From Escherichia coli O127:H6 str. E2348/69 (GTDB lineage: Bacteria; Pseudomonadota; Gammaproteobacteria; Enterobacterales; Enterobacteriaceae), in assembly GCF_000026545.1 (NCBI RefSeq), contig NC_011601.1: a DNA stretch of 64,000 nt. One strand, given 5' to 3'. Under the pieces are notes generated by a model. That model did no database searches, was not told the origin of the DNA, and saw nothing but the letters and a program-made list of their open reading frames with translations. Position 1 is the stretch's first letter. Every line of letters begins with the position of its first letter. Positions 35,110 to 36,445 of the stretch are shown one piece after another. The position numbers were made by a program, and so were the translations under genes.

Positions 35110-35774
35110 AACAGTTTCGCTATTGCCCGACACACTCAACGCATCCTCCGTTCTGTTATGACTTTCACTATGTCAAACCGGGGATGGTCGCCATCTTTGG
35201 TGACAACGGCAGTGGCAAAAGTACGCTGGCGCAGCTGATGGCGGGCTGGTATCCGGACTTTCTACCAGGAGAGATAACCGGCACGGGGACGCTTCTCGGT
35301 ACGCCCATTGGGCGTCTCCCGCTTAATGAACAATCCGCCACCATCCAGCTCGTCCAGCAATCGCCCTATTTGCAGCTCTCCGGCTGTACCTTTAGCGTGG
35401 AAGAAGAAGTTGCCTTTGGGCCAGAAAATCTGTGTCTTGCTGAAAAAGAGATTATGGCGCGGATTGACGCCGCCCTGGCCCTGACCGAGTGCCAGCCGTT
35501 GCGCCATCGTCACCCGGCAACACTCTCCGGTGGAGAGACACAGCGTGTGGTCATCGCCTGCGCCATCGCGATGCAGCCAAAGCTCTTAATTCTTGATGAA
35601 GCCTTTAGCCGCCTGACGCCGAAGGCCAGCGAAATGCTGTTGCAGCGCTTACAACACTGGGCGCTTGAACGTGGTTCGCTGATTATTCTTTTTGAACGTC
35701 ATCACACACCTTTCCTGAACCACTGCCAGCAAGCGTGGCAATTGCAAAACGGAGCGCTCCAGCCACTATGTTAA
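35091..35774 (+). CDS. ECF transporter ATPase component (EcfA-like ABC ATPase)
   Basis: Walker A GDNGSGKST, ABC signature LSGGETQR, Walker B LLILDEA; GTG at 35091 or ATG at 35097. Confidence 0.8.
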   Translation: MDMVTLEQFRYCPTHSTHPPFCYDFHYVKPGMVAIFGDNGSGKSTLAQLMAGWYPDFLPGEITGTGTLLGTPIGRLPLNEQSATIQLVQQSPYLQLSGCTFSVEEEVAFGPENLCLAEKEIMARIDAALALTECQPLRHRHPATLSGGETQRVVIACAIAMQPKLLILDEAFSRLTPKASEMLLQRLQHWALERGSLIILFERHHTPFLNHCQQAWQLQNGALQPLC

Positions 35775-36445
35775 CGTTAAATCAGATATCTTATCGCTGA
35801 CCTGGCGCGGCAACGGATTGTCTTTGCGACATTTCTCTGCAACTCAAACAAGGTGAATGGCTGGCGCTGACCGGCGACAATGGCGCGGGAAAATCGACGC
35901 TGTTACGAGTAATGGCAGGTCTTCTTACGCCCACAGCCGGTACGGTTATGCTGCAACAACAAGCGATGAAAAACCTGAAAAACCGCCAGCGCGCGGCAAA
36001 GATTGGCGTACTGTTTCAGGAAGCGGAAAATCAGCTTTTTCACAGCACCGTTGCTGACGAAATCGCATTTGGTTTGATACTGCAAAAATGCCCGGCGGAT
36101 GAAATCACTCAACGTACCAATGCTGCCCTGCAATGCTGTCAGTTAGCAGACACTGCCAGCGCGCATCCGTTAGATCTGCATAGTGCGCAGCGACGGATGG
36201 TCGCCGTCGCCTGCCTGGAAGCACTCTCTCCGCCACTATTGCTACTGGACGAGCCGAGTCGGGATTTTGACGAAAATTGGTTGAGCGTGTTTGAAAGCTG
36301 GCTGGAAAAGTGCCGCCAGCGAGGCACGAGCGTCGTAGCAATCAGTCATGACGCCGCATTTACCCGGCGTCATTTCTCTCGTGTGGTGCGACTGGAAGAT
36401 GGTGTAATCAGGAACGTTAATCCATCAGACGATATTCACCCGTAG
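35768..36445 (+). pseudogene. second ECF ATPase (EcfA'-like) interrupted by an in-frame TGA at codon 11
   Basis: ATG at 35768 overlaps the upstream stop; frame reads MLTLNQISYR-TGA-PGAATDCL…LTGDNGAGKSTLL… (Walker A), degenerate signature LHSAQRR, Walker B LLLLDEP, ISHD; the first in-frame ATG after the TGA (35912) lies past Walker A. Confidence 0.6.

Follow-up and report, generated by a model that had tools for sequence, protein, structure and literature searches.

ECF transporter modules are described as relying on two ATPase subunits that form EcfA/EcfA' heterodimers (PMC4525288). An operon related to these modules was analysed in a 64,000-nucleotide stretch of contig NC_011601.1 of Escherichia coli O127:H6 str. 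E2348/69, here called the window. The operon has the gene order PPC-S-T-A1-A2, and its second ATPase gene, A2, contains an in-frame TGA near its 5' end (Table 1).

As in the EcfA/EcfA' (CbiO-type) pairs, the two ATPases are encoded by distinct genes, and A2 shares its operon with T and S components. It has an ABC_tran domain (PF00005, 95.3 bits), and EcfA1, EcfA2 and CbiO are among its best matches in NCBIfam and the PDB. Unlike the EcfA/EcfA' profiles, which have 269-279 positions, A2 is 225 aa long and has no C-terminal extension; its signature is degenerate, and its partner A1 lacks the H-loop His. The NCBIfam models ECF_ATPase_1 and ECF_ATPase_2 matched A2 with 145.6 and 140 bits, far short of their equivalog cut-offs of 330 and 315. 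By these scores, A2 is a divergent, short relative. A1 resembles it in its length of about 225 aa, in the missing C-terminal EcfA extension and in scoring far below the NCBIfam ECF ATPase cut-offs. The S component matched the CD3073-like profile with 136 bits, below the cut-off of 180. A literature search on ECF transporters in combination with E. coli or yggC returned nothing specific to this transporter.

Table 1. The ECF operon of E. coli E2348/69 and the gene that follows it, in positions of the window
Feature	Position	Strand	Basis or remark
PPC/PCC-domain protein, first gene of the cluster	33369..33800	+	RefSeq; domain search
ECF S component (CD3073-like), intact	33823..34401	+	RefSeq; profiles; identical to APEC E19019
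ECF T component (CbiQ-like), intact	34402..35109	+	PF02361, 22.6 bits against a cut-off of 25; RefSeq name
A1, first ECF-type ABC ATPase, intact; LSGGE; Arg at the H-loop His position	35097..35774	+	RefSeq; profiles; alignment
A2, second ECF-type ABC ATPase (EcfA'-like), 225 codons, pseudogene here	35768..36445	+	Translation; RefSeq; ABC_tran; NCBIfam
Premature TGA, A2 codon 11	35798..35800	+	From TGG Trp11, G-to-A transition at 35800
Residual 177-codon ORF from Met49, without A-loop and Walker A	35912..36445	+	ORF list; gene callers (P0002)
yggC-like nucleoside/nucleotide kinase gene, convergent with A2	36417..37130	-	RefSeq; NCBIfam

Genomic context and distribution of the operon

The operon adjoins epd in E. 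coli, where it lies downstream of that gene, and also in Salmonella and Klebsiella; it is found next to epd in several enterobacterial genera and was lost from K-12. About 3,317-3,327 complete E. coli genomes carry the locus, and it is missing from about 2,099 of the 5,426 complete genomes searched (~39%). Of 3,330 places that matched, one lies on a plasmid record.

Lesions of A2 other than the stop codon were also observed. Two Logan contigs (L006, 1-1654, and L012, 1-630) have small-indel frameshifts upstream of Walker A and retain the TGG, and an NCBI draft contig (L008) has a dnaK/dnaJ junction inside A2 at about position 2976, equivalent to position 35887 of the window. The absence of the operon from many genomes, together with these independent lesions, fits a dispensable locus that would have been lost repeatedly.

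No gene follows A2 on its strand, and the nonsense mutation therefore has no downstream polar target. Its 3' end overlaps the kinase gene by 29 nt (36417-36445). Elsewhere in the window, at about 24748-26656, remnants of srsR (ygfI) and of methylmalonyl-CoA mutase (scpA/sbm) are annotated as partial pseudogenes in E2348/69, which indicates that this strain has lost the sbm-argK-scpBC region by deletion. In APEC E19019 the neighbouring glpX/yggF paralog is broken (L002, 5659-5974) and is represented by a partial pseudogene and a 99-nt hypothetical CDS; the E2348/69 copy is intact. Gathering-level Rfam matches in the window were 6S RNA (ssrS) at 19610-19793, the SIB antitoxin RNA by ibsC at 20442-20592 and the ES036 sRNA at 43127-43169.

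An in-frame TGA at the A-loop position of A2

A sequence-only reading of this DNA had proposed that A2 starts at an ATG overlapping the upstream stop and is interrupted at codon 11, and the translation bears this out. The ATG (35768-35770) lies four bases 5' of the TAA stop of A1 (35772-35774), the two genes overlapping by 7 nt, and the region 35768-36445 is translated as MLTLNQISYR*PGAATDCLCDISLQLKQGEWLALTGDNGAGKST..., with TGA as codon 11. Beyond the TGA the frame is open to 36445, and the TGA aside it is open over 225 codons. The Walker A (GDNGAGKST, residues 36-44), Walker B (LLLLDEP) and H-loop (ISHD) motifs are all intact in the translation, in agreement with the same reading. The canonical LSGGQ signature is absent from A2, which has LDLH[S/T/A]AQRR instead, a form conserved in its orthologs.

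The stop occupies the A-loop position, 25 residues before Walker A, and all that nucleotide binding requires is encoded 3' of it. In phmmer alignments, the YRWP of A2 aligns with the FSYP and FNYP of ABCB4 and ABCB1, which places Trp11 opposite the A-loop Tyr (Y401 and Y1044 in ABCB1), which stacks on the adenine ring of ATP. The stop had also been placed opposite a Cys of A1. This placement was off by one, for BLASTP of A1 against an intact A2 pairs position 11 with Pro11, and Cys10 of A1 with Arg10 of A2.

Codon 11 in orthologs and in other E. coli genomes

The codon carried by orthologs was examined by protein search and alignment, as the earlier reading had suggested, with 15 orthologs from six genera (E. 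coli, E. marmotae, E. ruysiae, Atlantibacter, Citrobacter, Salmonella, Klebsiella and Leclercia). Trp11 was invariant, and the N-terminus MLTLNQ..YRWP was common to all 15. A start downstream of the stop as the normal one was not found among these orthologs, all of which share the upstream ATG, and in Salmonella and Klebsiella the overlap of this ATG with the A1 stop is kept at the DNA level. In other strains, RefSeq annotates an intact 225-aa protein from the same ATG. Codon 11 is TGG in APEC E19019, E2865, Salmonella and Klebsiella, and TGA in E2348/69. Since the orthologs share the start and carry TGG, the TGA represents a genuine break in a conserved frame and not a mis-called start.

The distribution of the two alleles in E. 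coli was read with 35-base queries centred on the variable base and built so that each 28-base megablast seed must span it. Of the 5,426 complete genomes, three matched the TGA version, each being E2348/69 or a construct made from it, and at least 3,191 matched the TGG version. The remaining carriers of the locus, about 120 genomes, were matched by neither query, presumably because of nearby polymorphisms, and the counts cover the genomes that match one of the two. A 1,501-base segment of the window spanning the locus showed 100% identity to E. coli E2348/69.

The A sets this strain apart from every other by one base, as sequencing or assembly errors typically do; were it such an error, the real base would be G and A2 would be intact. 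The earlier reading had listed such an error among its options. Three deposited assemblies that derive from E2348/69 and stem from different projects, however, have the same A, and it recurs in two contigs from other read sets, one from Logan (SRR1577788) and one from an ENA metagenome (ERZ761545); the site also lies outside any homopolymer (local sequence CGCTGACCT). With three assemblies and two contigs from other read sets in agreement, an error at this base is very unlikely.

The exact 177-aa residual product is present in a large protein collection, and a look-up led to ten places. The TGA is found in two of them, the Logan and ENA contigs named above (L007 and L009), which match the window at 100% identity over 2,242 and 2,692 bases. 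The other eight are explained by the frameshifts in L006 and L012, the junction in L008, N gaps in L010 and L011, and contig ends in L013-L015, so that the look-up of this product in ten places gave no evidence for a wider lineage with the allele. Among the sequences searched, only E. coli E2348/69 and sequences identical to it have the change.

A strain-specific and apparently recent nonsense mutation

That A2 is a pseudogene in E2348/69 is already known from public annotation. RefSeq flags it as such, with the remark 'internal stop', in CP059840.2 (H4J01_RS04320), LT827011.1 (BQ9544_RS17355) and LT903847.1 (BQ9550_RS08205), all derived from E2348/69. Three features by which a nonsense pseudogene is recognized are present at this locus: full-length homology to intact genes, a sense codon and the same start in the orthologs, and a stop that is reproducible.

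W11*, H116R and a single synonymous change are all that separates A2 from its nearest intact allele, from APEC. E2348/69 and APEC E19019 have identical S components, and neither the T component nor A1 is disrupted. The mutation looks recent, because A2 has no other disabling change and no secondary decay. A recent nonsense mutation had been one of the options of the sequence-only reading, and it is the one that agrees with the restriction of TGA to three E2348/69-derived genomes, the invariance of Trp11 and the few other differences in A2. The TGA is thus read as an ordinary strain-specific single-base nonsense mutation, TGG to TGA (W11*), by which A2 would have become a recent pseudogene without a functional product; this reading has a probability of about 0.92.

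Signals for recoding of the UGA

In bacterial genes an in-frame UGA could also specify selenocysteine, and two observations would be in line with this: the gene is otherwise intact, and the paralog A1 has a Cys at the neighbouring position. The orthologs, on the other hand, have Trp at codon 11, neither Cys nor selenocysteine, the UGA is confined to one strain, and the position belongs to the adenine-stacking A-loop, which is no redox site. The fold of the 73 nt that begin with the UGA has an energy of -15.6 kcal/mol and is weaker than the mean of shuffled sequences, -18 (z = +0.86); among 200 shuffles, 163 fold at least as well. An Rfam scan of 35600-36000 at E<=10 detected no SECIS and no other family. 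The folding and the scan confirm the absence of a SECIS-like stem-loop that had been noted by eye. A2 was accordingly rejected as a bacterial selenoprotein, on the SECIS test and on the Cys/Sec-conservation test (Trp in the homologs, UGA in E2348/69 only), and selenocysteine recoding has a negligible probability.

Programmed readthrough was rejected as well: neither the stop nor its context is conserved, and every ortholog examined has TGG. No tRNA gene, and hence no suppressor tRNA, was found by ARAGORN within the 64-kb window.

The residual reading frame

Beyond the TGA, the first in-frame ATG, GTG or TTG is the ATG at 35912 (Met49), 3' of Walker A, as the sequence-only reading had claimed for the first ATG. 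The frame from this codon stays open, and gene callers report its 177-aa product, so that reinitiation after the stop could be imagined to yield an N-terminally truncated yet useful protein. Against this, there is no ATG, GTG or TTG between the stop and Walker A, and any truncated product would therefore have neither A-loop nor P-loop. Directly 5' of 35912 no Shine-Dalgarno-like sequence can be seen, and all orthologs begin at the upstream ATG. A functional ATPase from the residual frame would not be expected, and a useful reinitiation product is extremely unlikely.

Consequences for the transporter

The two ATPases look like an asymmetric pair, as seen in the window (35097-36445) and in two further sequences (L017, 3330-4690, and L018, 3330-4657). 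A2 has the LDLH[S/T/A]AQRR signature, and A1 has LSGGE and, at the position of the H-loop His of A2, a conserved Arg (LFER in A1 vs ISHD in A2). Both degeneracies fall on one composite site, made of the A1 P-loop and the A2 signature, which suggests that the sole consensus ATP site would be formed by the A-loop, Walker A, Walker B and H-loop of A2 with the signature of A1. The putative A1/A2 heterodimer would thus apparently have one consensus and one degenerate ATP site.

A single G-to-A transition at 35800 turned the TGG of Trp11 into TGA. In the sequence of events that we propose, ribosomes would start at the conserved ATG overlapping the A1 stop, make the 10-residue peptide MLTLNQISYR and terminate. 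Because no in-frame start precedes Walker A, no functional A2 would be made, and the outcome would be a recent pseudogene. Loss of A2 would abolish the sole consensus ATP site and hence the transporter, which in E2348/69 is most likely dead and would at best be a strong hypomorph.

How complete this loss would be depends on readthrough, and three features of the allele favour a leak: the ancestral residue is Trp, the base after the UGA is C and the remainder of A2 is undamaged. UGA is the leakiest E. coli stop codon, and Poole, Brown and Tate (1995) reportedly found termination in E. coli to be weakest at a UGA with C as the next base; a literature search on UGA-C as a weak E. coli terminator returned eukaryotic work only. 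The K-12 variant of RF2 is unusually weak, and non-K-12 strains have a more efficient RF2, so a B2 strain such as E2348/69 would probably read through less than K-12. The main determinant of UGA readthrough in E. coli is the competition between Trp-tRNATrp and RF2, and in K-12 reporters readthrough by Trp-tRNATrp amounts to ~2% at 37 degrees C and ~4% at 25 degrees C (PMC10570021).

With Trp as the ancestral residue, the commonest misreading of the UGA would rebuild the exact wild-type protein, and the allele may therefore be leaky and not null. Low-level readthrough as an incidental leak would be plausible. It is a further step to suppose a hypomorph in which Trp-tRNATrp reads the UGA-C often enough to supply A2 for reduced transport, or, in a stronger form, in which the stop serves as a regulatory step. 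The readthrough figures come from K-12 and would probably be lower in a B2 strain; the intact remainder of the gene is equally expected of any recent mutation; and a stimulatory structure 3' of the UGA is absent by the folding described above. As no ortholog has a stop at codon 11, there is no sign of selection for readthrough. We consider such a functional leak improbable. It is held to be quite improbable that Trp-tRNATrp decodes the UGA-C at the A-loop codon at a rate sufficient to restore authentic A2, which would make this a naturally occurring self-correcting allele instead of a dead gene. If it were so, E2348/69 would keep a low, condition-dependent transporter activity that scales with the tRNATrp/RF2 balance, temperature and cAMP status. 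Readthrough, or any full-length A2, would yield the tryptic peptide WPGAATDCLCDISLQLK.

Discussion

E2348/69 (O127:H6), a widely used EPEC prototype, has a nonsense allele of its own in an ECF transporter that is accessory in E. coli. In practical terms, studies of this transporter need another strain or a repaired codon. The uncharacterised operon is of more interest than the mutation, with its two short ATPases and its apparent combination of a consensus and a degenerate ATP site.

Placed beside known systems, A2 resembles fdhF-type selenoprotein genes, which have a UGA and a SECIS, only in its in-frame UGA; unlike them, it has no SECIS, its homologs carry Trp and its UGA is not conserved. 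The closer comparison is with the routine 'internal stop' pseudogenes of RefSeq PGAP, with which A2 shares a single-base stop in a conserved ORF and intact alleles elsewhere in the species. No substantive difference from such nonsense pseudogenes was found. The one nuance is that the lost residue is Trp and the new codon is UGA-C, so that its commonest misreading would restore the protein.
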